This document shows, piece by piece, positions 2,162-19,657 of a stretch of DNA of 20,000 bases. The translations under genes were made by a program, and so were the position numbers. Each line of letters begins with the position of its first letter. Position 1 is the first letter of the stretch. The stretch lies in sequence record SRR20825019_2182; one strand, given 5' to 3'. The notes beneath the pieces were generated by a model. It was given only the letters and a program-made list of their open reading frames with translations, did no database searches and had not been told where the DNA came from.

Positions 2162-3042
2162 ATGAATCGAAGAAGAACAAAAGCAGAGATTCGTCTGAAT
2201 GTATATGATTTACATGATGTAAACCAGTACACTTACTGGGCGGGGGTTGGGGTGTTTCACAGTGGAGTGGAGATTCATGGTGTAGGTGGGTACAGCGGGA
2301 TCTCATCGAGTACTGGTCGTCTCTAAGTTGAAGTTGACAGAGTATACTTTTGGAGGTCATCCGTTTTCTTCCACAGGAGTTTTTGAAGTCGAGCCTAAGC
2401 ATGCTCCAGGGGCTAGGTTTAGGGAAAGTGTGGTGCTGGGTACCACGGAACTGTCACACTATGAGATTCAAAGAGAAGTTCATAAGCTGAAAGCCCCGTT
2501 TGCCGGAAACTCTTACAATATTCTTACGAGGTGTGGATGTTTTGTGCTTTTAAGGAGTTTACCGTCTTATTCGGGACTAGGAACTGCAATCACTTTTCCG
2601 ATGAGCTGTGCAAGCACTTGTTGGGTTCGGGAATTCCTGGTTGGACGAATCGCTTGGCATGGATTGGTGCCCAGCCGTGGGTGCAGTGCATGCTACCGCA
2701 GAGCTTGGGCCTTCAAGTTCCAACCGCAGATGGAGGTATGGCACTGTCATTTGCATCTAGGCATCTTGTTGACTTTCCTTCAGGAGTGGGTACGGCAACA
2801 GTGACGGAGGAAAGGCAGCCATTTGTTGCGTTTAGTGGTATTTGCTGCGGTGAGATGTTTTATGGTCTTTATTCTCACTGTTGGATGTAGGGACTGGCAA
2901 CACGTTGAGTAGTAGCGGTGGTGGTGCAACCATGGCAATTCCTGCCGGGGAAAGTATGGAAGAGACGGAACAAGAGCGTAGGGAACGTGCGGCAAATGCC
3001 GCGATGAAGCGGTTGCTTGCACAACAGAAAGATGACAACTAG
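2162..3042 (+). CDS. PPPDE/DeSI-family peptidase (deSUMOylase/deubiquitinase-like, DESI2-like), about 224 aa, with C-terminal SHP-like and VIM motifs
   Basis: Exons 2162-2285, 2341-2530, 2581-2735, 2784-2837, 2891-3042, joined by GT-AG introns of 55, 50, 48 and 53 nt. The spliced protein has LNVYDL, GVFHSGVEIHGVEYTFGGH (catalytic His, 2258-2260) and YNILTRNCNHFS (catalytic Cys, 2585-2587), then IPGWTNRLA. Confidence 0.93.
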
Positions 3043-3174: not shown

Positions 3175-3681
3175 TTATTGGAGATAGTTCTCCTGGATGT
3201 ACTCCCAGTTTGCATATGCAAAGGCTGAGAGGGCACCAAACACAACAAGGCCAAAGTAATAGCCGGGGTTGGTACGGCCGTCCTGCTTGGGGACGTATGA
3301 TGCCTTTGCCCTTGCTTCGCGGGCAGCCTTAACCTTTGCCCTTGTCTCCTCGTCCATTTTCAACTCGCCCATATAGTACTGGTCCAGCATAGCCCATGCA
3401 TCATCAGAATGTCCAACATCCTCATAATCTTGGGTAGCATCTTTCCCAGCAATCTCGTGCAAAACCTCCTCACCACCAGGGTGCTCTTCAGCGAACTTTG
3501 TGACGTCAAATACCATGTCGTGAATGACCATCCAGCAGTCGTCTGGAGAGCTATGCTTGGCGACTTCCTCAATGGTGAACGACTTGGCATTGGCGCGAGT
3601 GGGGCGTTTGCGCTGATCAACAGGGCGGTCGGAGGCGAAAGGGTTACGCCCGTACTTCTCAGCAAGGTTTGTCTGCTCCAT
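3175..3681 (-). CDS. CYB5: Cytochrome b5, tail-anchored, 168 aa, intronless
   Basis: FTIEEVAKH, DCWMVIHDMVFDVTKF, HPGG heme ligand, AGKDATQDYEDVGHS second His ligand, and a C-terminal hydrophobic segment YYFGLVVFGALSAFAY. Confidence 0.96.
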   Translation of the reverse strand: MEQTNLAEKYGRNPFASDRPVDQRKRPTRANAKSFTIEEVAKHSSPDDCWMVIHDMVFDVTKFAEEHPGGEEVLHEIAGKDATQDYEDVGHSDDAWAMLDQYYMGELKMDEETRAKVKAAREARAKASYVPKQDGRTNPGYYFGLVVFGALSAFAYANWEYIQENYLQ

Positions 3682-3799
3682 TATATTTTTTTGGTTATAA
3701 TTTTACACAGCCGTGGTTGGTATATTTATGTGAGCGCAGGGGGGTTATCACCGACCAGAAAAGAAGAGGGGTGGTAAGTGGCAAGATAGGAAAGAAGTA

Positions 3800-4760
3800 C
3801 TGGGTACCCAGAGCGCCAGGGAAGGGGGGGGGGGGGGTAGCGGGGCCTGGTACGACAGCGGCGCCTTTTGGAGGGTCCCCATGGCTCAATCAAATCCATG
3901 GCACGGGGTCGTCACTGCCAAGACCTAGCTCAGCAGGGCCACCCGGAGCGTGGAGGCGGGTGGCTCAAAATAACTTCACAGCCCACCCAAAAAAGTAAGG
4001 TTAATGATCCCTAGAGGCTAAAATTAGCCGGGTAAGGATAGAAAATAGATCAACTACTAGTCCAAATTAGTAGCGAGTCAGCTTGGGAACGTGGCCGCGG
4101 AGTCGCCGAAGAGATCGGTGTCCGGGTCACGGTTACACGATTGATGCGATTGCCGGGACGTCAGCCCACGCACGGCTGCCAGTTACGTTACGCTGCAACG
4201 TTCAGTTCTGTGGCATGAACAAGGTCCGACTGGTCCGCCTGTCCGGTCACCATCATCCGGCGGCCGTGGGCGGCTCACCGCCCGTGCGACAAAGGCCGGC
4301 CCGCAGGCCATCCGTTTCAGCCAGCCTTATCCAGTCAGGCCCCGGTGACGACCGGCATCATCACGACGGGCTCAGGCATGCGTGTCGAGCCATGACTGCA
4401 AGGCGCATGGCACGCCCCCGACTTTGGGCCGCCGCAGTGGGCCTTCATTGGCCGATCGGGGCGAAAGGCTGGTGGGACCTCTCCACCTTCACCGGGTCTC
4501 GGGGCGCCGCCCGGCCGAGCTCGTGTGAACGTTACGATGATGCCCGGCCTGGTGAGCCGTGCTCTCACCATAATGCGGGCATGCTGGCCCCCTCGGTCCT
4601 GGCTCTACTAGAGACGAACCGGAGTCGTCATGCTGTCGCGGTGTCCCAGATATCACCGAGCCGCGTGCTGCAACCACTCAGGTTCCAGTGCGGTTCGGAT
4701 ACCCTTGCGCTCTCGGCGGATCAACACTACACGGATGAACGACTGGGGCCGCCGGGTGTG
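3800..4760. promoter_or_regulatory. GC-elevated intergenic island 2 (milder than the others), putative bidirectional promoter region
   Basis: Lies between divergent starts 3681 (-) and 4961 (+). Contains a G14 run at 3824-3837 and a CCGG/GGCC-rich part at about 4090-4760. Boundaries are approximate. Confidence 0.5.
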
Positions 4761-5839: not shown

Positions 5840-7711
5840 TCACCCTTGTGCAACTCGTGCAGCCTTGTCCTCTTCATCTTCGTCAATCACACGAGTCTGG
5901 GACAATCCAGCCATTTCTCTGTCCAATTGCTCTAGTCGCTCCAATGCTGCCTGCTTCTTCTCATGCCAAGACATACCATCATGCTCCTCTACGATGCTAT
6001 TGTACAGCTGTCATTACAACAGTGAGTTCGCCAGCAACTGGATGAAAACAACCGCGACTCTTACCTTTACAAAACCCTCGAAATCAATAGGAGCCGAGAT
6101 GCTCAGACGAGTCATGTTTTCTTCTATATCCAATGAAGAAATGGAGGAGACAGTTCCCAGTCTTTGGACGACCTCGCGGGCCCCACTTATCGACATTCGT
6201 CTCCTAAGGTCGTGAGAGCCAAGCTGTCGGCAGAACTCTCGACGAATACGAGCGATTTCGACATCTTTCATAACTGGGAGCATGAAATCCTCTAGACCCG
6301 CGTCATCTCCAACCTCCCTTCTTCTCTCCTCAATAAGCTCGAATCGTTTTACCTCCTCCAGTTCTCCTTCTACCTTGCCAAGGCGTTCGGATAACTGTGA
6401 TATTCTCTCCCGCAAGGAATCTCGCTCAACCTCCATTGCTCTTTTCTTCACACCAATTATCCCGAACGCCTCCTCTTCATTGCTGGTCTGGCGCACCTTG
6501 AAGGCGCTGTACATACACATCAAGGTGGTGGTAGAGTTCGGATTGATGGATAACTCAAGCCAGGCTCTCAAACGTCTCTCAAGCACTGCACGCGGATATT
6601 GATCGAGGCCTGACAACAAAGTTGAAATCAAGGTATTTTTTTCTTCGCGCACCCCTAACTCACCTTTAGTAAGAAGACCTCTTCGCTTACAAGCTAGAAG
6701 TAGTTCCTCCTCCGTCATGTTGCTCACTCCTTCCCAGTAGATGTCCTTGTCATCCTTTCTAATGCTACGCATTTCAGTCCTTATAAGCACACGCAAAGTT
6801 CCACTGGTCAAAAACGGGCTGCCAATATTCAGCATGGCACAAATCCTTTGCAAAACGATGCGGGGAACATCATCGAGGGTTATATGCTTGCTAAACAGCG
6901 GCGCAAGCGATTCCATAAACTCATTCGTGTTGACATGTGTGTTCTCGTCCACAATTCTTTCGTAAATATCCACGATCTTCCTGATGTCATCCGTTGAGAC
7001 ATCTTCATTTTCCTTTTCAACTTCTCGGACAAGTTCAATGGCGGCTTGGCTTAGTAGTTCGGCATTGGCCACTTGCTCTTTCACTCTCTTGTCCAAATCA
7101 GCATCGAATTTTTTCTCGTTAAACCTGCGAAGTATTGGCTTGAAGTGACTAGGGAGAATGACCGGGAAAACCCGCACCTGAACAGAGGGTTAGAACGCCA
7201 GAACCGCTCCCATTCCTCCATATGCTTCACTTACCGTCACCAAGTTTGTGATCGTCATTCCTGTAGTCATCACACTAGCCGCAAACGGCAGCACTCGAAA
7301 GAGGTCCGTGGCTGCTTGACGAAGCAAGTGCCTTTCCCTTCGAGTGTGACGATGGCCTTGAGCATACCGCCGTACCAAACGCAGGGACCACTTTAACTCT
7401 TGGTAGAAAAGTCCAAATGCACGCTTATACTCTAAAAAAATCTCTTTCACAATCTCCAGCTTCCTAAAAAGACCCGACCTCCCGTTTTTATGCTCTGGCT
7501 TTGTGGACTTCTCAGTCGTTCTACCTGCTACCACTTTCTGCTCCGTTGAAAACAAGCGTGTTGAAAGACAACGGGTTGCCGAGGCAGGTTGGCGACATAC
7601 AGGAACCACTACCCTCAGACGTGTCATCCCGAACCCAGTACTAGCAGGCACGGTGTACTTCGTCGAGGAAGCTCGCCACACCGGAAGACCAGCACGAACC
7701 AGACGAATCAT
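5840..7711 (-). CDS. LETM1-domain mitochondrial inner membrane protein (LETM1/Mdm38-like), about 585 aa
   Basis: Exons 7711-7235, 7177-6065, 6007-5840, with two 57-nt phase-0 GTAAG...CAG introns. It has an Arg/Ser/Thr-rich presequence-like N terminus, TRRERHLLRQAATDLFRVLPF, FPVILPSHF, ITLDDVPR, IRKDDKDIYWEGVSNMTEEELLLACKRRGL, LRAWLELS, a coiled coil and a degenerate EF-hand-like IDFEGFVKLY. Confidence 0.9.
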
Positions 7712-7809
7712 ATTGAGCGCGTTTCAGGACAAAGTCTAAAGCGCATCAAGAGACTGCTTCCTTGAAATCGCTGACAGGAATATTAATAACTGTGATGAGT
7801 GTGTGACGC

Positions 7810-8727
7810 TACCGTCACTACCGTCGGCTCACGTACGGCCGGGCCGAGCCGGGCGCTGAACTGGTCCGTCCGAGTTAGGGCGCGTGCGGCGGGTGGACCG
7901 GACACGGTCACGGGGCCAGTGAGCGGGCCCGACCGGGTGGCCCTCGGACGGGAGCCCGGCCGACCGGGCCCCGGCGGGCGGCCCGGCGCCGCGGGGCGGC
8001 GCCGCCCCCCCGCCCGGCCCAACCCGCCCGGCCGCGCCGGCCTGGTCAGGTGACCGCACTGACCGGACCGGACCGGGACGGCGTGGCGGGCCCCCGGCAC
8101 TGGCACCCACTGCGGGCCAGGCTCCCCGGCCGGCGGGCTCCAGTGCCGGCCCGCCGGCACACGGGCCGGGCCGCACGCCGCGACTGCGACCATGGCATGC
8201 CCAGCCGGTGTCCGGTGTCCGCCCGGTCCCCGCACGGCCGGCCCAAGGCCCGGCACGCGGTGATCGGACGGGACGCGATGCCGGGTCGAGCCACCGTGCC
8301 GTGGCACGACCGGACCGCGGCCGGCCCGCCGCCCGGGCGGGCGGGTCACTCAAGCGGGGCAGGCGGGTGAGGGTCGCAGCGGCGCGGGGCGCGGCCCGGC
8401 GCCGCGCGGCGCCTCGACTGACGCCGACCGTGCCGTGGGACGGACGTGAGTGACCCGGGACGCGCGGCCGCCGCGGGGGGGCCGGGGCCCGCGGGTCACG
8501 GAGGGTCAGCGCCCCGAGTCGGGGCACTGCAGGCTGAGCCCCCGGCGCCGCGCGCCCGGCCCGGCCCCGGGGCCCGGGGCCGCCGGCCGGGCCGGCCCGC
8601 CTGAGCCCGGGCGGGAGCCCGGCGGAGTCCGGTCGGGGCGGCCTCCGGTCTCCGGTGACGCCGCGGGCAAGCGTCAGGAGCCGCGGCCTCGGGCACGGAA
8701 CCGGGTGCCGACCGGCCCCTCGGTCAC
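7810..8727. promoter_or_regulatory. Extremely GC-rich intergenic island 3, putative bidirectional promoter region
   Basis: Lies between divergent starts 7711 (-) and 8848 (+). Pure G/C runs at 7964-8020 (57 nt) and 8538-8601 (64 nt), and (GACCG)3 at 8061-8075. Confidence 0.65.
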
Positions 8728-8813
8728 ATGAAATACCCGTTTCCCAGTACGGTCAGTCTAGCAGCAAAAGCACTGCCTTCAGGTTCCCACTGACTAAAGA
8801 ATTCTGTGCTCAC

Positions 8814-8823
8814 GTCACGTGAC
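8814..8823. promoter_or_regulatory. GTCACGTGAC palindrome (extended E-box), candidate bHLH/bZIP site
   Basis: Perfect 10-bp palindrome ending about 25 nt upstream of the ATG at 8848, within CACGTCACGTGACTGACTC. Function is inferred. Confidence 0.35.
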
Positions 8824-8847
8824 TGACTCGCGAGCCGACGTAAAGTT

Positions 8848-9609
8848 ATGAGTGAGCGCTTTACTGTGGACAAGAAGGATAGGTTCATTAGAGAAGCAAG
8901 AGAATATGCAAGTGCAAACTGTGTATCTATACCCCTTTCCGCTATAGAAGAGCTCGACTCGAAAGGGGTGACAGTTCTTGATGGGCTGTTTGAAAGTCAA
9001 AGGAGCATGCTCAAAGAGTTGGGTGGTGATGTGTCGCGGTTGTGCGACAGTGGAGCACTCGCTGCTGCTCAGCAAGGGGCATCTGTGCGGGGTGACAAAC
9101 TTGGGTTGTTTCACGAACACAATGCGGAAGACATGCACGCACATGGCTTGCTTGAGGGTATTTTGGTGATGAAGTCCATTGGACACTCCCTCGAACAGGC
9201 ATGGGCAGAAAAAACAGGCGAGAAGCCTAGTCTCAGGGTGCCTTCACGTGTGATGGCGGCAGTATACGATGGTAGTGGTTCCAAGTATATAGCACACAGA
9301 GATGTCAGGTCTGTAGGATTCGACGATCCGAATTGGTGGATGATGCTGGAGCCCGAAATATGTGAACGGTATGTCACCGCGATTCTTTATCTTCCCAACC
9401 AGGACTGGGAGATTCCGAAAGGAGGGGAGCTTAGATGCTTTTTAGGCGCTCACGAAGATGATATCGAAGGGAAGACCGCCAACGAAACCATGGATATCGA
9501 GCCTGTTCCGGGGCGGCTGGTCTTGTTCATGTCAAGGGACGTTCTCCACGAGGTGCGACCAGCGCACTCACGGCGGATGGCCACCAGCATATGGTTCTTG
9601 AAGAAGTGA
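8848..9609 (+). CDS. EGLN/PHD-like 2-oxoglutarate/Fe(II) dioxygenase (prolyl 4-hydroxylase type), 253 aa, intronless
   Basis: GVTVLDGL, VRGDK, MAAVYDGSGSKYIAHRD (HxD), RYVTAILY, DW...GGELR, IEPVPGRLVLF, LHEVRPA (distal His) and RMATSIWF (2OG-binding Arg). Confidence 0.9.
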   Translation: MSERFTVDKKDRFIREAREYASANCVSIPLSAIEELDSKGVTVLDGLFESQRSMLKELGGDVSRLCDSGALAAAQQGASVRGDKLGLFHEHNAEDMHAHGLLEGILVMKSIGHSLEQAWAEKTGEKPSLRVPSRVMAAVYDGSGSKYIAHRDVRSVGFDDPNWWMMLEPEICERYVTAILYLPNQDWEIPKGGELRCFLGAHEDDIEGKTANETMDIEPVPGRLVLFMSRDVLHEVRPAHSRRMATSIWFLKK

Positions 9610-9611
9610 GC

Positions 9612-12148
9612 TCATTGAACTGTTTCCGTAATAATGTACTCCACTCCGTCAACCTCAAGGCGATGATGCTCGATTGGCGTTTTGTCAAGATCGGGCGGTT
9701 CGCTGGAGTGGACTTGTCTCGAAGTATGAAGCATCTTCTTCGGTTTGGCTGGTGATAATGGCTTCGCAATGTTATACAAGGAGATCGGCCTGTCGATGTG
9801 GCGTTCATGCACGCGGGGTATAGCCTCTGTCGCAAGTGCGGGATTGTTTGCCCTGTCCTTGACCACCTTCTCTATGTCATCGTGGTGGTATATTGCCCTG
9901 CCCAGGAGTAAGCACTACTAGATGCCACACACCACCCAACTTACTTCTTTCTCCTTGTTAATGCAATCTTCTTGTACCCCGTTATAATCCGCGTGGTTGA
10001 ATGTGGAACACGCAAACTTCCAGGCCGCGGTGTCGGGGACTCACCGCCAGCTGTCCATGGTCGTTGGGACCAAGGAAGCACCTTCCGCGGCTCGGGTGGA
10101 ATGGCATACGTATTAGGGGCTTCAAGCCATGGGTATTCGAGGGGTTGTTTAGAAAGCTCATCGTCTTTTGTTACTTCCTGGGGTTGCTCTTTGTCCTTCC
10201 AGCCACTCATGGAGGCCTCCTCCGCAACTGTTTTCTTTGTTTCTTGAGGACATCCACCCCATTGTAAACCCGGTGCCCCCTTTGGAGCGACAGTGTAATC
10301 ACCCAGGTAGTGGTATACCAATGACAATTCTGTGTTGCACATAGAGTGAAGTCCAATGTAGTAAATACCGTCGTCTAGCCCAACAGATTCGGGGTTGAAC
10401 TGAAGTAGAGGCTTGCCCGTCCCATTGAGAGTGTAGATCGCATTCTCAGCACAGGGGTACAGCTCCGAAGAGATGTACGTGACAATGCGAGGGTTCGCTA
10501 GGAAACCCTCGGCCTGTATGGACAGCTCGAATGTCTTCGATAAAGAGTGCTTATACTCAAAGGAAAAGTATTGCACTGAGCCTGCTCGCACGGTGATAGG
10601 GCATCTCTGGTCGGCGTCGATTTCAATCACACGATCCTCACCCTCGGTCACATACATCATGTACGGGCAATCCTTATCACTTGAGATGATGGTAGCATGG
10701 ATCTCTCCCCCAATTCCTATGATGATGTTCTTTGGCCACACAACCACCCGTCGCCATGGTTGATCCTTGGATAAATCAAAAGACAAATCATGCTTCTTGG
10801 CGGTTGGGACACCGTAGTTTGTTAGAAGCAGCCGTACAGTAGATTTAAATGGCATTAGGTTGCTGACATGTATACAAATGGGCTGGTCATGTTTCCTAAC
10901 AGGGATGCGGTACACATTGGGGTGTTTGCTCCTCGCCAGGTGAGTATAATGATAGTTGTGCTTTGCTTGAATAATATTCTGCTTCCCCGATATTCTTGCG
11001 GACACAAAACAGGAAGAAAGCGTGGCGGGACCCTCAATGCTGAAGTAAATCCATCCCGCCTTCAAGTTCTGACTGCATTGCAACACGGTCATACGTTTTG
11101 CATATCTGACAGGGGAATCTTCCCCTCCGCTTTCTCCAGAATCTGAAACCTTTCCCGTACCGGGCTTCGTCATTGACGCTGCCTGATATGATGCGCTGTC
11201 GATAATGACAACCGAACTGGAATTTCTTGTGGTCCATTCACAAGTGCTTCGCGTGGGGTGCGTGCACATCGCACTACAGTACATCTGTCCTTAAGGTCAG
11301 AACAAATTAGCAAATGACTTACTTTTGATCACACTCACATTAACATCGGGGCCTGTCCCTGTATCGACGATGATACTGAAATCGGCGACTACAGGAAGGC
11401 GGAACCTTCCAAAGACATATGTGAGCTCGTTTGGTGAGATGAGTTTGGTAGGCTTGTCTTGGAGTTGAATTGTTAGGATCTGTTCCGGCATTCTGCGGGG
11501 CGACAGAGGTACCGGTTTCTCCTGCTCTGACTCATCTCTACCTGGCGACGGGCTTGTTCCTGTGATAGCATCACTCGTACCGGACACAGTGAATACTTTC
11601 TTGGGAAGACTTGACACATTTGATGAAGGAGACTCAAACGGTATCATGCGTGGCTTGATAATGCTACTCTTTGAGACATCAGCATTATCTGGAGTTCCTT
11701 TGTCGATCGCGGGAAAAGGCCTGTCGCTTGCCATTCCCATGGAGTTTGTTGCGCTGTTAAGGTATCCTGCAGAGTGCGGAGAATCGTCTTTAAGATGCAT
11801 GCCCACATTCACCACTCCAACGTTTGGTAAGACTTGCGGGCTAGGTGACCGACGTAAAGGCCTAGGCTTTATGGGAATCGGGGAGCGTCCTCCCCGGGAT
11901 GGTGGCCGTGTAGCTACAGGATTTTCCATATTCAATGGTGCAAACGATGTCATTGAGTTACTATGCTCCGAGATGACATTGACAAAAGCTGTCAAGGAGT
12001 TTTCGCGGTTTGGATAGCTTGGCATCTTGTCGAATTGTCCATCGGTGTCGATTCCCGGGCTGTGAGGGGTCCATGGGCGGACATGGGAGCTGGTCTCGAC
12101 GGAGACAGATAGGGGTACATGCGACCCCTTCTTGTGAGGTTTACCCAT
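9612..12148 (-). CDS. Large hypothetical protein, about 811 aa: Ser/Pro-rich disordered N terminus and beta-rich, possibly PPC-like, repeats
   Basis: Exons 12148-11339, 11284-9945, 9897-9612. Introns 11338-11285 (54 nt, GTGAGT..CAG) and 9944-9898 (47 nt, GTAAGT..CAG) join three track ORFs in frame. There is a probable 5'UTR intron at 12207-12151 (57 nt). Confidence 0.8.
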
Positions 12149-12479
12149 CCCTGCGATCAGCACTTCATTCGTGGTGCGCTGCTACAGCTCCAACAAAGAG
12201 CACACACCTGTGACTCCGTTCTGATCGATCAGGCACAGGAGGGCTTCATATAGCTTCGTTATGAAGCAACCAACTCTCTAGCTCTGGTTTTGCCCGCTCC
12301 CGTACGTCCATTAGGCAGGATGGTCTCCTTGCTGTCAAAGCGATCGTGGGGACGCGACTGGCGATGACTCGTCCTCATGGCCATAGCATCGTTGCTGTCG
12401 TCCACACGCACAGTACCGTGGGAGGATCGGATTCAACTAGAGTGGAGTGGGCCCGTCCACAGCACTGGCAGTAGTTGGC

Positions 12480-13330
12480 GCTGCTCGGCGACCTCACGGT
12501 GATGCGTGCTGAGGAGGCCGTGGCTGTGTTGGTGTCGCACACCGCCGGCGCCGGCCCGGTTCTGTGAGTGGTCGGCACGACAGAGGCCGGAGTGCCACCG
12601 CGCGGAGGAGGGTCTGGGGCCGTCGGTCCCCGGCCGTCCGGGCGCGCGCCGTCGGGTGCGGGCCGGCCCGGGCTGCCGGCCCGGAGCCCCAGGGAGACGC
12701 CAGCCCCCTCCTGATGAGTGCGGCCGGCCTGGCCCCGGCCGGCGCGGCCGGCCCAGAAATGTGGCCGAAGCCGACACTGTACTCTACCCGTCTGGCGCCG
12801 CGGTCGGCCGGGCGCACCGGCCGGGCGTGCGCGCCCCGGTAACCGCTTCATCAAGTCCATAATCGAGTTAGCAGTCCGAGGGTTGTGGGGACACACCCAG
12901 CCGATTCCGATTCATTACCAGTGCCCGCATGGGCACTCGCAGGTCACACAGTAAAGGAGTGATTTCATTTCATCGACGACGTCAAAACTAAGAGTCCAAG
13001 AAATACAGGAACGTCAACTGCTAGCACACAGTGGAACGCCGCAGCTGCACTGACCCGCCGGCCATCGACGCATGACAGTGGGTGGGTCGCGCCGCGGGCG
13101 GCGGGGGTCGCCTGCCCGGGCGAGCGTCGTTCATTCGGCACGCACACGCGGCGCGGTCGGCGGGCGGTGTGGTGGGCTGGAGTCACCCGCACAGCCCCCG
13201 CCGGGCGCGTTGCGCCGGTGCGGGTGGCCGGTCGGGTAGCCTGCCCGTCGTTGCTGCCTTGCGATTCATAGCTCGGCCGCCGGGGGCGCAGAGACTCATG
13301 AGTGAGCGGCAACGCCCGAGGCTGCCACAG
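12480..13330. promoter_or_regulatory. GC-rich intergenic island 4, bipartite, putative bidirectional promoter region
   Basis: Lies between divergent starts 12148 (-) and about 13524 (+). GC cores at about 12540-12840 and 13055-13290 are separated by an AT-richer spacer. Confidence 0.6.
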
Positions 13331-13523
13331 TGCCAACCTTGCCCTGCCCCTTGATGCCTGGCGGCAGGTGCTTGATGCCTCTTTTCCTTGGCCGGCCTTG
13401 AAAGTGCGCCTGGCCGCTAGGCAGCAGTTCAGGTTTGACTTTGAAGTAGAAGTACATTCCAGAAACCCTATACATAACGGACCTACCACACGAAATCTTC
13501 AGGTTGGCCAGCTCGTATTCAAC

Positions 13524-16500
13524 ATGAGCAATCGCGCCACACAGAAGGCCCTGGAGTACCAAGCTGCTCTCAAGCGTATTACACTGGCCAAACAAAACCG
13601 CAAGCAGAGGAAATTTACCCGGGTAGATGACGATGATGTTCAGGAGTTTGCAAAAGGAATGGGCACAAACACGTATCGACTGCCCCAGCAGTGGACCAAC
13701 GCCGATGCAGAGAGTTCTGCATTGCCGCCAGGTGTGAAATTAGTCCAACCCAAATTCCGCGTGAAGCAGAAAACCACCACCTCCATCTTCAGTATGCAGG
13801 AAATTTATCACAGTTCAGATGAGGAGTCAGTCACTGGCTCAAGAAAGAAAGAGAAAAGTAAGCACAGTTCACCTCAGAAGGGCTCGCAGAAACACAACAA
13901 ATTTGGGTCGGTAATATCTGTGGCGGAGGCACAAGCCAGAAAGAAGGAGGCAGATCAGAGGAAGCTTATGGGTAAGTCAAGTAAGCTGACTACCTTGGAT
14001 ATATTGGAGAGTCTTCTTGACTTGAAGAGGATTGAGAGCCTTCGGTTGCAGTTTGACAAAGAGGAAGAAGGTTTAGACAAGGCGCGATTCGTGCAAATTA
14101 TGGCGGCGCACTGCCCAGAGCTGGAGGGACCCCTACTTATCCCCACACTGGTGGAACTGTTCTCACAGATTGACGCGAACGGAGACGGTGACTTGTCCTG
14201 GGACGAGTTTACGAACTTCATTGTAGAGTCTGGAATGGTGCTACAGGATCGTTACAGGAAAGATGCAATCACACCATACTATCCCAGTCCTATCATTGAT
14301 GACTCCCAGCATCACGCACAAGTCGACAAGGTCTTTTACGTCCGTGCTTTGGATCAGTTGATCATATCAGAACGTTCCTACCCGGTGGTTCTCATGTATA
14401 ATCCCCAAGAGCTGACTCCGACGAGGCAGCTGCGTGGGCATAAGGGCCAGGTGCTTTCCGCAGAAGCAATTCCAGAACACGGGGTCTTAGCAACTAGCGG
14501 TGCTGATATGTCCATTATGTTTTGGGACATGAACACATGGACAAAGAGGAAGTCGATGCATGAGAGATATGCCCAGATGAAGCTATTGTGGAGTCGTGAG
14601 TACGACACCCTTTACTCTGCTGGTGCGGACAGCATCATACGAGGATATGATGTTCGGAATACTAAGGAGAAGTTCCGTCTTGAGGGTCACAACGATATTG
14701 TCATGGACCTTCTTGCAATTCCCGGACTGGATTTCTTGGCATCAGCATCATTAGACCAAAGGATTATTCTGTGGGATATGCCCACAAGACAATTCAAGAA
14801 AGAGCTCAAGGGGCACACGAAAGGAATTTTGTCTCTCACATACTCTCAGGACTACAGGTTCCTTGTGAGTGGTGGGTCTGAGCACGATGCCATTATATGG
14901 AATCCGTTTGTAGAGACTGTCATCTTCCGTCTACGTGGCCATAACAGTTCCTTAATTGGCGTGGAGGCAATCGAGGGAACGCCTCAGATTGTGACCGCCG
15001 ATTCCGAAGGATTCTTCAAGGTGTGGGACATTCGAAACTTCAGATGTGTTCAGACCTTCCAGTCCGAGGATGCGATTGGAAAAGAGATTGCCTCATTCTG
15101 CGCGGTTCCCGCTTACAAGAGGGTGGTTTGCTCGGCACGGAAGCTTATTGCGTTTGACTTTGTCGACAACATGGACCCACGTCTAACTGACCAGACTCCG
15201 GTTCTCTGCACCCTGTACAATCCCGCTTCTTCGACCTTTGTGACTGCAGGGTCAAAAAGCGTTAAGCTTTGGGATGCCGCCACAGGAAAGTTGAAGTGCA
15301 CATACAGGGACCTCTCCCAGCATGAGATTACCTCTTTCTGTCTTGACGACCGCTTGTACAAGTTTGTAGTTGGCGACCACGCAGGAAATATTCGAGTCTT
15401 CAATTACTCCAATGGAGCGTTTATGAAGAGCCTAGAGCCGCACCAGCGAGAAGTTTCTAATTTGATCTATTCTGGTGCCTCAAAGACTGTGATCAGTGGA
15501 TCTTGGGACACTCGTATATGCATTCACGATGAAAACAGCGTTGGTGTCGGCGGTCTTCTACGCGCCATGAAAGCCCACAATAAGGATATCACCTGCATGT
15601 CATACTCGGCCCAGCTTCATCTTGTTGTTTCTGGTTCTAATGACACCCTCCTGAAAGTTTGGGATTACCGAGGTGGAAAACTCGATGGAATGTTCGATTC
15701 GCACGAGGCGGACATCACTGCGGTGACTTTCCTGGGAAAGCACCCCTGTCTCTTTTCTGCGGATAGTTCGGGGGTATGCTGCATATGGACCTCACATCCG
15801 TCTCCTTATAAGGTTTGTGATATTGGAAGTTTATTTTGGTTATTTTGGTTCCTTCACTAAGTATTGTATGCAGTATCGCCTGCTTTTAAAGTTTGAGAAC
15901 AAGTTCACATCCCCAACATCAGGAGAAGAAGTTGCCAGTTGTATTAGCGCTGCTGCGTATTGCGAGTATGAAAGTGTATATATATTGAGAGTGTATTGCC
16001 TAACACAGCAATAGGGATCAGATGATTATGTATACCGGGGACGAACACGGAGAAATCAAGGCGTGGGATATGAAGGCCATTCTCAAGGCCCTCCACATGT
16101 ACAAGGACCCGAACACTGCCGGGGCCAAGGTTGCCCCAGACGATCCCGAGTCCAGGGTCTCACTGCCTGGCGCGATCACTGCAGTTATGGCCGTCAAGAA
16201 GTTCAAAAAGATGTACCGGAAGCGCAGTAGCATCAAGTTGACGGTTCCGTATGTCACAGCTCACCAGATGCCTATGATTGGCCGATGGCAAGCCCACACC
16301 GACGGTATGATGCTTCGATTGTAGTGTTGCGGACTTTGATACTTATGAATTCTTTCAGGTATTCGTCACTTGCATGTCACGGAGGATCCTAGATCTGTGA
16401 TTTCGTCGGGATACGACTGCATGGTGCATATCTGGTCTGCGCCAGACGGAGCCAAGATTGGGTCACTACATCAAGGAATTTCTCCGGAAGAATGGTATTT

Positions 16501-17182: not shown

Positions 17183-17511
17183 ACTTCTCTCGGTCAAAAT
17201 GATTCCATCATAATTAGCTAAAGGACGGTGCGCTAGAGAGTCTTCATGTAATCGGTGCGATGCAACGTGATTGCCTGACAATAAAGGAAGCCCTAACCAT
17301 TTACTTTCAAGGATAGTCATGAGCAAGACATTCGTTCCTATCGCGGCTCTGTCACTGCCAATCTTCGCACAACGTTCACAAGCCGACAAATGCCGCGGGG
17401 CTGCCACCCGAAAACCAAGGATAACTTGGGAAGTGACAATTGAGGCCACAAATTCACAAATCGGAAAGTTTGTAACCATAAGGGATTCGGTGAATACGTT
17501 ATTGTGCTAAA

Positions 17512-17915
17512 GGGGGTCCAGTGGGGTCGACTTGACCGGCACGGCCCGGCCGGCCGGGCCAGGGCGCACCGCGGCGCGGGGGCGGCGGCCCCCCGGGCGC
17601 GGCCGCGGCGCGGGGGCGGCGGGCCCCCGGGCGCGGCCGCGGCGGGGTCGCCCCGGGCCCGCCGGCCCGGCCGCGGCGCTGAAGTTGGCGCCGGGCTTCG
17701 GTTCCCAGTTGCCCGCCGGGCCGGCCCGGCGCGGCCGGCCCCCGGCCCGCGGTCCTGAGGCGCGACCGTGGCCGCCGCCGGGGCACCGGCGACCGCGGAC
17801 GCCGCCAGCGGCACCCAAGGGCCGTGCCCGCCGCCGGCGCCCCGCCCATCGGCGGGCGGGCGGCCGCCACAGGGCGCCCCTGCGCAGCCGCCCGCGGCCG
17901 CGAGGTCCTTGTGAA
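17512..17915. promoter_or_regulatory. Extremely GC-rich island 5 upstream of the 7TM gene
   Basis: A 79-nt run with no A/T at 17569-17647. The island ends about 135 nt before the ATG at 18049, and the flanking genes are in tandem (+/+). Confidence 0.6.
17570..17644 (+). repeat. 34-bp pure-G/C tandem duplication (about 2.2 copies)
   Basis: 17570-17603 CGCGGCGCGGGGGCGGCGGCCCCCCGGGCGCGGC and 17604-17637 CGCGGCGCGGGGGCGGCGGGCCCCCGGGCGCGGC differ by one mismatch, followed by a partial copy CGCGGCG. Confidence 0.85.
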
Positions 17916-18048
17916 AGGCCTAGCACGTCGCAGCTCCGAGCACTGAACTGCACCGCACCCGAACTTCGATGATCTCCGGGGTAGCTTAGTTTATGTATCC
18001 GTTTATGACACTACTAAACACTGTTGAAAATTCAATCATACTTTCAAG

Positions 18049-19657
18049 ATGGGGCGCTTTCCGAAAGGAAGGCTCCTCCCTGTTTTTCTTGGATTGCTTT
18101 GCCTATCAATGGCACCTAGGTTAACCACTGCTCTTACGAAGAACTTTCATATAGGTATTGTGTATCCAGGCTTTGTTTTCTTGCCACGTGGCTAATATAT
18201 GTCCTTGCGTACTAGGTAGTGCTTTATCACGGGTAACATCCGTGCTGGATCAGTTTGGTATCGAGCGTGGGGGCACCATTGACTGTGAACTTCACTTTTT
18301 GTCAACAGACCGTCACTACTTTGCTGCACTTTATGCAATCCAGAAGTGGAGGGACTTCGAAGTCAGAGCCAAACTGAATGAGGAGTGGATTTGTTCATTT
18401 CCTTCAGACATGCGCATAGAGCTTACAGGTCACACACTACAAAACAGCGGAAAGGTGACTATTCAGTTGCACCATGTTGTGAAAAGGACAGACCTCTATC
18501 GACTGGTAATCCTGGACTGCCCTGGTGGCGTCGACCATGGAGAAAGGACTAGTGCACACGGAGGGAGTGGAACGTGCACAATTAAGAACTCTTCAACGGG
18601 CCATCTCCCCCTCGAGGAAGTTCACATCATTGTTTGCATGGATGTTTTGACGGTATTGTACATTGTTTTATTTATTTCCTTTCTTATCTACACGGTCTTG
18701 AAGCGCAAGAATTACACCCACCTTCATGGGATTGTGTGTGTGGCAATGGCCATGATGGCGTTGATGACATCGCAACGCAGCCTCTACCAGAGAACTATTC
18801 AGGACAGCGGCTCTGTGGGAGAGTTTGCGGAGTTTTATTTTATTGTTGTGGAGCTGCTGGCAAACATGTCAGTTTTGGTGGTGATGATGCTTGCCGCGGT
18901 GGGGTGGCAAGTTGTACGCGCAGCGTTGGAGGCCCGGGAGCGTTCCGTGCTTTCATCAGCCTTCATATTTTATGGTTTCCTTGGGTTTTTGTACGAGACG
19001 TGCGAGCAGGAGCACATGTGTGGCGCATACTTGTTGTCTTTCTACGTCGTGAAGTTTCTCATCACCCTGGGTATTATTGTGGGAATGAACGCGACCGCCG
19101 AGCGAATCAGGGCTGATTATTGGGAGCAGGTGTCTGCCCACGCACAGGGAGAATATTTTTCAAAGCTGCGGCAGTATCACCACTTCAGGTGGTTGTTTGC
19201 GGTATATTTATGTATCCCCGTCGCCACCCTGGTTTTGCGTATGTCAGTCTTGACCTGGAACGACAAATGGCTGCTTTATCTCTTTGAAGGGCTGCTGGAG
19301 TTCTATGTGCTTGCCAAATTCTCCATCATATTCCGTCCGAATCACACACCAAGTATTGAGATGCTTCCGCCAGAAAGTGACAGTGAGATGGGAGACCACA
19401 TCAATCGTGAAATTGAGATGGAGAGGCGGAGGCGCGCTGATTTGGATGGGTTCGGGGAAGATGACGATGATGATTTGTTCTTGAGACGCGCGGATGCAAA
19501 TGAAGGAGAACAAGGATCTCGTGATTCGGAAGGAAGTGGGCGTAGTGAAGAGGGCGGTGGCGGTGATGAAGATAGCATGCGTCAGGACTCGTCTTTGTAC
19601 ACCAGGCGGAGAGACGTCAACGGTGTTTATGTCAATGTACCAACATCTGAGGACTGA
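18049..19657 (+). CDS. Signal peptide, luminal domain and seven-TM protein, GOST superfamily-like (GPR107/GPR180/TMEM145/TMEM87), about 515 aa
   Basis: Exons 18049-18154 and 18216-19657, with a 61-nt intron (GTATTG..CTAAT..TAG). Exon 1 supplies a signal peptide (LLPVFLGLLCLSMA). It has FGIERGGTI at the start of the luminal domain, HLPLEE before TM1, THLH, LAAVGWQVVRAAL, about 7 hydrophobic segments, IFRP after the last TM and an acidic tail. Confidence 0.82.

Follow-up and report, generated by a model that had tools for sequence, protein, structure and literature searches.

The window, a stretch of DNA of 20,000 nucleotides from sequence record SRR20825019_2182, carries on its plus strand a gene for a peptidase of the PPPDE family, the family of the DeSI proteins, whose C-terminal tail is predicted to contain, after splicing, an SHP box and a VCP-interacting motif (VIM), both of them motifs that bind the N-domain of the unfoldase p97/Cdc48. 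Taken with its relatives, the gene probably encodes an active-looking PPPDE peptidase that is docked twice on the Cdc48 N-domain and deconjugates the clients of the unfoldase. The gene and its parts are arranged as follows.

2162-3042, plus strand: PPPDE gene with five exons and a coding sequence of 675 nucleotides, giving 224 amino acids and a stop codon
2162..2285, plus strand: exon 1, with ATG at 2162 and the N-terminal part of the PPPDE domain, including the presumed catalytic His codon at 2258-2260 (His33)
2286..2340, plus strand: intron 1, 55 nucleotides, GT..AG
2341..2530, plus strand: exon 2, the middle part of the PPPDE domain
2531..2580, plus strand: intron 2, 50 nucleotides, GT..AG
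2581..2735, plus strand: exon 3, the end of the PPPDE domain, including the presumed catalytic Cys codon at 2585-2587 (Cys107 in NCNHF)
2736..2783, plus strand: intron 3, 48 nucleotides, GT..AG, in frame and free of stop codons
2784..2837, plus strand: exon 4, the start of the tail and the first half of the SHP box (F-V-A-F-S and the first base of the Gly codon, 2822-2837)
2838..2890, plus strand: intron 4, 53 nucleotides, GT..AG, interrupting the SHP box
2891..3042, plus strand: exon 5, the second half of the SHP box (2891-2907), a linker rich in Ser, Gly and acidic residues, the VIM and the stop codon at 3040-3042
2822..2907, plus strand: SHP box FVAFSGTGNTL, residues 170-180, joined across intron 4
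2980..3012, plus strand: VIM RERAANAAMKR, residues 205-215, of the form Rx5AAx2R, ending 9 residues from the C terminus

Exons 1-3 together span positions 2-150 of the 151 positions of the PF05903 (Peptidase_C97, PPPDE) profile. The pieces encoded by exon 2 (E=3.8e-13, 50.0 bits, profile positions 45-107) and exon 3 (E=4.9e-11, 43.1 bits, profile positions 109-150) score above the 29.2-bit cut-off, and the 41-amino acid piece from exon 1 lies slightly below it (E=2.1e-06, 28.1 bits). In an alignment of 24 relatives His-33, in the segment GVFHSGVEI, occupies an almost invariant column and Cys-107, in NCNHF, an invariant one, and these two residues we take to be the catalytic dyad. By its domain and its His and Cys residues the predicted protein is a member of the PPPDE/Peptidase_C97 family, and the domain match together with the placement of His-33 and Cys-107 in conserved blocks indicates an enzyme that looks catalytically intact.

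The gene model follows the homolog alignment, in which removal of intron 1 leaves the conserved block ending in HGVEYTFGG intact, removal of intron 2 leaves YNILTRNCNHF intact, and the site of intron 3 is empty in all 17 aligned homologs. Were intron 3 retained, the tail would begin with 16 extra residues and the frame would be kept. Intron 4, the one placed within the SHP box, is in line with the other three in size, and in the frame that retains it (open reading frame 2486..2890) a stop codon is reached at 2888-2890 and neither the SHP box nor the VIM arises. The junction was examined by forming 42 GT/AG combinations, including retention, and scoring each product against a profile of the 24 relatives. 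The intron 2838/2890 comes out on top with 268.6 bits compared with 237.4 bits for retention, a score that is partly circular because the members of the profile were picked for having the motifs.

In the spliced frame codons 2822-2836 read F-V-A-F-S, G2837 joined to GG at 2891-2892 forms a Gly codon, and T-G-N-T-L-S-S follows, placing the strict SHP pattern F.G.G..L at residues 173-180. Beyond a flexible linker of 24 residues, codons 2980-3012 read R-E-R-A-A-N-A-A-M-K-R, the pattern of a VIM being Rx5AAx2R. The earlier note on this DNA had described a DeSI/PPPDE peptidase with an SHP box assembled by removal of intron 2838-2890, a VIM in codons 2980-3012 and neither motif intact among the open reading frames, and each point is borne out: PF05903 covers exons 1-3 with the His and Cys in place, the codon reading returns both motifs exactly, the intron appears by homology to be the best of the combinations scored, and the unspliced frame ends before either motif is complete. 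PMC7403338 quotes the SHP consensus h(x)1-2F/W(x)0-1GxGx2L, and the segment VAFSGTGNTL fits it. In the passage of PMC5042407 that deals with the human Ufd1 SHP box, FRAFSGSGNRL (residues 225-235), the contact residues are Phe-225, Phe-228, Asn-233 and Leu-235, with Gly-230 and Gly-232 strictly conserved, and the window sequence FVAFSGTGNTL is identical to Ufd1 at all six of the positions named there. At the level of sequence, the predicted protein has everything that defines an SHP-box and VIM cofactor.

A word-indexed search with exon 2 alone gave only 2 relatives and is too insensitive, and a full HMMER scan and a profile search were used instead. The HMMER scan, with the exon 3-4 query against 1.84 billion representative proteins, yields 463 matches at E<=0.001, and the best 150 of the 463 include 43 proteins with a strict SHP box, 41 with a strict VIM and 29 with both. 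Restriction of these 150 to the 104 whose tails have 50 residues or more leaves 42 with the SHP box, 41 with the VIM and 29 with both, and 50 have neither. A wider set of 160 proteins from the HMMER and profile searches, all with tails of at least 50 amino acids, has an SHP box in 70, a VIM in 67 and both in 53 against shuffled-tail expectations of 0.34, 1.10 and 0.00, in a set that is enriched in carriers because the search profile included the tails. Neither motif was found inside the PPPDE domain part of any of 215 proteins. The SHP box precedes the VIM in 52 of the 53 double carriers with a median gap of 33 residues, and in the set of 160 the median distance from the end of the VIM to the C terminus is 10 residues. 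The flanks are also patterned: Ala precedes the SHP box at -1 in 35 of 67 cases, an aromatic residue or Thr stands at -3, and Gly or Ser follows the Leu, and around the VIM an extra Arg comes before in 42 of 63 cases with a hydrophobic residue after the last Arg (Leu in 22, Phe in 15 and Met in 10 of 63).

A tail rich in Ser, Gly, Ala, Glu and Arg, as this one is, favors patterns of this sort, and it could be asked whether both motifs are chance matches in low-complexity sequence. The shuffling experiments make that hardly credible. In 200,000 composition-preserving shuffles of the 79-amino acid tail of the window protein F.G.G..L appears 378 times and R.{5}AA..R 850 times, with both present in just 2 shuffles, and the family-wide expectations given above refute the idea in the same way.

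Named carriers of the tail include Toxoplasma gondii, Hammondia, Neospora, Besnoitia, Polysphondylium violaceum and Thalassiosira species, together with Hemiselmis andersenii, Diphylleia rotans and Mantamonas plastica; by the strict patterns Eimeria has an SHP box but no VIM. We place these as apicomplexans, diatoms, a dictyostelid and a cryptophyte, with Diphylleia and Mantamonas in addition, so that the carriers presumably belong to several eukaryotic supergroups. Both motifs are missing from a relative in the mollusc Lottia (P0187), from one grass relative and from all 7 of 7 further land-plant DeSI-like proteins. Among the proteins fetched, the closest full-length relative of the window protein has about 47-49% identity. 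The occurrence of the same tail in relatives from many protist lineages argues that the tail very probably works in docking.

The annotation of some relatives seems of little help in reading them. The proteins of Toxoplasma, Hammondia, Neospora and Besnoitia are annotated as 'EREBP-4 family protein' (P0183, P0184 and P0037 are so named), and the papers listed for 'EREBP-4' in the literature are all on plants; the name seems uninformative for apicomplexan PPPDE proteins. In Eimeria two proteins of 482 amino acids named 'acyl-CoA dehydrogenase, putative' (P0233 and P0234) share a 90%-identity cluster with a PPPDE protein of 213 amino acids (P0207), which hints that gene models were merged or that the name misleads.

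Independent pointers to p97/Cdc48 come from structures and from domain fusions. A profile of the 24 family members searched against 177,635 distinct PDB sequences at E<=10 gives 8 matches, two of them DESI1, five p47 or Ufd1 (E 0.091-2.2) and one an unrelated chain, and the alignments fall exactly on the two p47 SHP boxes and on the yeast Ufd1 SHP box. Each of these p47 and Ufd1 matches is weak by itself, but their selection is telling. One relative, P0179, has the order PPPDE domain, SHP box FSGEGYTL and then a UBX domain (PF00789, E=1.8e-12) at the place of the VIM. This UBX domain is 45% identical to that of a p47-type UBA-SEP-UBX protein with two SHP boxes of its own, and it has a YPR loop where the Phe-Pro-Arg signature belongs. 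A second relative, P0202, joins PPPDE to UBX (E=9.7e-09) with an FPP loop, and such fusions are rare, these 2 being the ones among the proteins examined. According to passages in PMC10641518 and PMC5042407 UBX and VIM occupy one and the same cleft of the p97 N-domain, and P0179 and P0202 would therefore have swapped one cleft binder for another.

The predicted shape of the tail is of the same kind. For the closest homolog, P0004, AlphaFold2 with a 24-row alignment gives a model (mean predicted local distance difference test score, pLDDT, 77.1) that has a confident domain and a tail that is disordered over residues 138-194 (pLDDT <50), with the SHP segment at a pLDDT of about 50. A lone helix at residues 199-217 (block means of pLDDT 83 and 75) covers the VIM at 203-213. 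Such a modeled tail, unstructured but for one helix, suits the needs of a linear SHP box together with a helical VIM. Around the VIM there is also a weak likeness to SVIP, the SVIP family profile PF15811 matching the window tail at E=0.076.

Conservation of two motifs need not by itself mean p97. Short and degenerate patterns such as these, with an Arg/Lys-rich region at the VIM and weak PDB and SVIP matches, might be kept for another partner, as a basic nuclear-localization patch or as an amphipathic membrane helix. We regard this as very improbable, as 53 proteins combine two independent p97 N-domain motifs in a set order where 0.00 would be expected, the residues through which Ufd1 makes its contacts are all retained, a true UBX domain stands at the place of the VIM in one relative, and the PDB matches from outside the family are, with one exception, all SHP boxes of p47 and Ufd1. 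Docking of the tail on Cdc48/p97 is thus likely, and it has good comparative support.

Two family assignments were considered for the tail and rejected. Membership in the SVIP family fails at 13.6 bits against a cut-off of 27 bits, the likeness being confined to the surroundings of the VIM. Membership in the WLM family of Wss1 fails also, the pieces of the window protein having no WLM match and the match in 1 of the 24 relatives, at E 0.54, being noise.

Some relatives carry another domain in addition to PPPDE. Fusions to a PITH domain (PF06201) form one clade (P0195, P0197, P0200, P0201, P0203, P0204, P0206 and P0211) which includes a protein of Symbiodinium microadriaticum named DESI2. PITH is a proteasome-interacting module.

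In the mechanism we propose, the C-terminal tail of about 75 residues would be disordered and serve as a two-part docking device for the p97/Cdc48 N-domain. The SHP box FVAFSGTGNTL would bind the Nc lobe on its outer face, and the helical VIM RERAANAAMKR, beyond the 24-residue linker, would occupy the cleft between Nn and Nc. The tethered peptidase would then act as a substrate-processing cofactor stripping a ubiquitin-type modifier from proteins that the unfoldase handles. We infer the binding, the contact sites, the action on extracted substrates and the bond cleaved, which may involve ubiquitin, SUMO or an acyl thioester.

The arrangement resembles several known systems, each in part. Yeast Wss1, a WLM protease, and SPRTN are also proteolytic and, according to a passage of PMC7782752, use an SHP box and a VCP-interacting motif to contact Cdc48/p97, but their catalytic domain is a zinc metalloprotease acting on DNA-protein crosslinks, whereas that of the window protein is a papain-like PPPDE domain. 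Two-part binding of the N-domain, with SHP on the Nc lobe and a second element in the cleft, is reported for p47/Shp1 and Ufd1-Npl4 in the part of PMC5042407 concerned with these adapters. There the pairing is SHP with UBX in p47 and SHP with a UBX-like domain in Ufd1-Npl4, whereas the cleft binder of the window protein would be a VIM helix, and these adapters are non-enzymatic and recruit substrates. The p47-type module of SHP and UBX is shared by the relative P0179. Deconjugating enzymes that work on p97 as substrate-processing cofactors are represented by YOD1/OTU1, VCPIP1 and Ataxin-3 (as treated in sections of PMC10641518), which differ in having OTU or Josephin folds and in docking by a UBX-like domain or a VBM. 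SVIP, similar around the VIM as noted, differs in having no catalytic domain. Human and mouse DESI1 and DESI2 (PPPDE2/PPPDE1) share the catalytic fold, with PDB entries 2wp7 and 3ebq matching the family profile at E=7.1e-18 and E=2.1e-17, but the DESI1 chains in the PDB (168 and 170 amino acids) match profile positions 8-127 only, which is the domain and not the tail.

Further points of the earlier note can be read against these comparisons. Its proposal of a p97 cofactor that would take ubiquitin or SUMO off extracted substrates is supported in every part open to sequence analysis. It had proposed scanning homologs for SHP and VIM tails, and the scan finds both kept at fixed places in the tail across eukaryotes (29 of 104 with both). 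It suspected that human DESI1 and DESI2 lack the pair, in agreement with the animal and land-plant relatives that have no motifs and with the DESI1 chains that match over the domain alone. Its statement that SHP and VIM occur together in the protease Wss1 accords with the passage of PMC7782752 cited above.

An enzyme with a tail that docks on p97/Cdc48 could still remove something other than ubiquitin or SUMO from the clients, such as an S-acyl or palmitoyl group held as a thioester, or another ubiquitin-like modifier. This is unlikely; in its favor, 11 of the 24 members have a weak similarity to the LRAT family, with a best E of 0.0086. Against it, passages of PMC10641518 give ubiquitin chains, glycans and protein backbones as the main targets of the enzymes known to serve p97 as cofactors, and we continue to favor removal of a ubiquitin-type modifier.

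Several observations count against a doubly docked deconjugase. The second of the 42 splice combinations, at 260.1 bits, uses an alternative donor at 2850 (GTGAGA) in the same phase and adds 4 residues inside the SHP box, so that the box is broken and the VIM kept. The junction 2837/2891 is well supported by homology, short of proof. With neither motif in 50 of the 104 longer-tailed relatives the tail is not universal in the family. The window VIM has Ala at inner positions where many family members have Leu. The matches in the PDB and to SVIP are individually weak (E about 0.003-2), PF15811 being found in 4 of the 24 relatives with a best E of 0.0028 and always under the Pfam cut-off, and the 49-amino acid peptide of the last exon of the window gene, searched alone against the PDB sequences, has no match at E<=10. 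The chemistry of the PPPDE family is itself disputed, with SUMO, ubiquitin and palmitoyl thioesterase activities all reported in the portion of PMC13015453 that covers it.

Use of donor 2850 or retention of intron 4 in the source organism would leave no SHP box and at most the VIM. We think this quite improbable. Donor 2850 does keep phase and the VIM frame and comes second in the scoring, yet it gives an intron of 41 nucleotides compared with the 53 nucleotides from donor 2838, which is like the 55, 50 and 48 nucleotides of the other introns, and an uninterrupted F.G.G..L, as in 70 of 160 relatives, arises only from donor 2838. The isoform made with donor 2850 could be a splice switch for p97 docking.

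The novelty of an SHP-box and VIM tail on a PPPDE peptidase can be stated within limits. No paper on SHP or VIM motifs in PPPDE or DeSI proteins was found in the full-text literature, which leaves subscription journals mostly outside, and a prior mention is possible. The work of Iyer, Koonin and Aravind from 2004 is the founding PPPDE paper and may mention such tails. DESI and PPPDE have 0 occurrences in the text of a 2023 review of human p97 adapters (PMC10641518). A link between PPPDE and p97 is not wholly new. Fusions of PPPDE to PUB are annotated in apicomplexans, as seen in an excerpt of PMC12604037, and PUB binds the C-terminal tail of p97 (from a passage of PMC10641518). Compared by description only, these proteins likewise join PPPDE to a p97-binding module, and they differ in that a folded PUB domain is aimed at the C terminus of p97 whereas two linear motifs in the window protein would be aimed at the N-domain. 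Human DeSI1, in the portion of a 2026 preprint that describes its partners (PMC13596326), co-purifies with VCP, NPL4, UFD1, BAG6 and ubiquilins, suggesting that a functional link may outlast loss of the motifs. What appears to be new is the SHP and VIM tail on a PPPDE domain, forming a candidate enzymatic p97 cofactor docked by linear motifs.

The remainder of the window has the following genes.

3175-3702, minus strand: cytochrome b5 gene (PF00173, E=3.9e-27), its product having a hydrophobic C-terminal stretch
6014-7189, minus strand: LETM1-like gene (PF07766)
8827-9609, plus strand: 2OG-Fe(II) oxygenase (PF13640)
13302-15860, plus strand: long WD40-repeat protein
18155-19657, plus strand: GOST-type seven-transmembrane protein (PF06814)

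The cytochrome b5 gene lies tail-to-tail with the PPPDE gene, their stop codons being about 130 nucleotides apart. The open reading frames at 9941-12181 and 3-686, both on the minus strand, have no match in a Pfam search, and there is no Cdc48 or ubiquitin-system gene among these neighbors in the window. Between the genes, which have about 0.45-0.52 G+C, lie islands rich in G+C (1001-2000, 4001-4500, 7501-9000, 12501-13500 and 17501-18000) that reach 0.61-0.83 G+C in 500-nucleotide windows. What the islands have in common are degenerate low-complexity repeats of the GGCCCGG type and not long repeated elements; promoter islands, the remains of an element and a spacer type specific to the genome are among the possible explanations.

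How the tail came to be distributed as it is can be approached tentatively. The SHP and VIM tail might be ancestral to DESI2-like PPPDE peptidases and date from early eukaryotes, these enzymes having begun as Cdc48/p97-coupled deconjugases, with animals, land plants and some others later losing the tail or exchanging it for UBX, PITH or PUB; this we put forward as a possibility more easily doubted than affirmed. A FastTree phylogeny of the domain (117 rows) is poorly resolved, with 60 of 112 inner branches open, and gain and loss are not separable on it. Carriers are spread along the backbone of this tree, and one starred clade (27 rows) and the PITH clade have no motifs.

PPPDE/DeSI proteins are found across eukaryotes and their substrates, whether SUMO, ubiquitin or acyl groups, are still debated. 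If the tail is ancestral, it would provide the first general cellular context for DeSI/PPPDE, namely the processing of unfoldase and proteasome clients, and the relatives that have UBX or PITH in place of the tail likewise point to the unfoldase and the proteasome. The architecture is kept over much of eukaryotic diversity and is testable by simple point mutants. It would bring a fourth deconjugating-enzyme fold to the known substrate-processing cofactors of p97, and a conserved two-motif tether to Cdc48/p97 would show where PPPDE enzymes act in many protists, including apicomplexan parasites, diatoms and dictyostelids.

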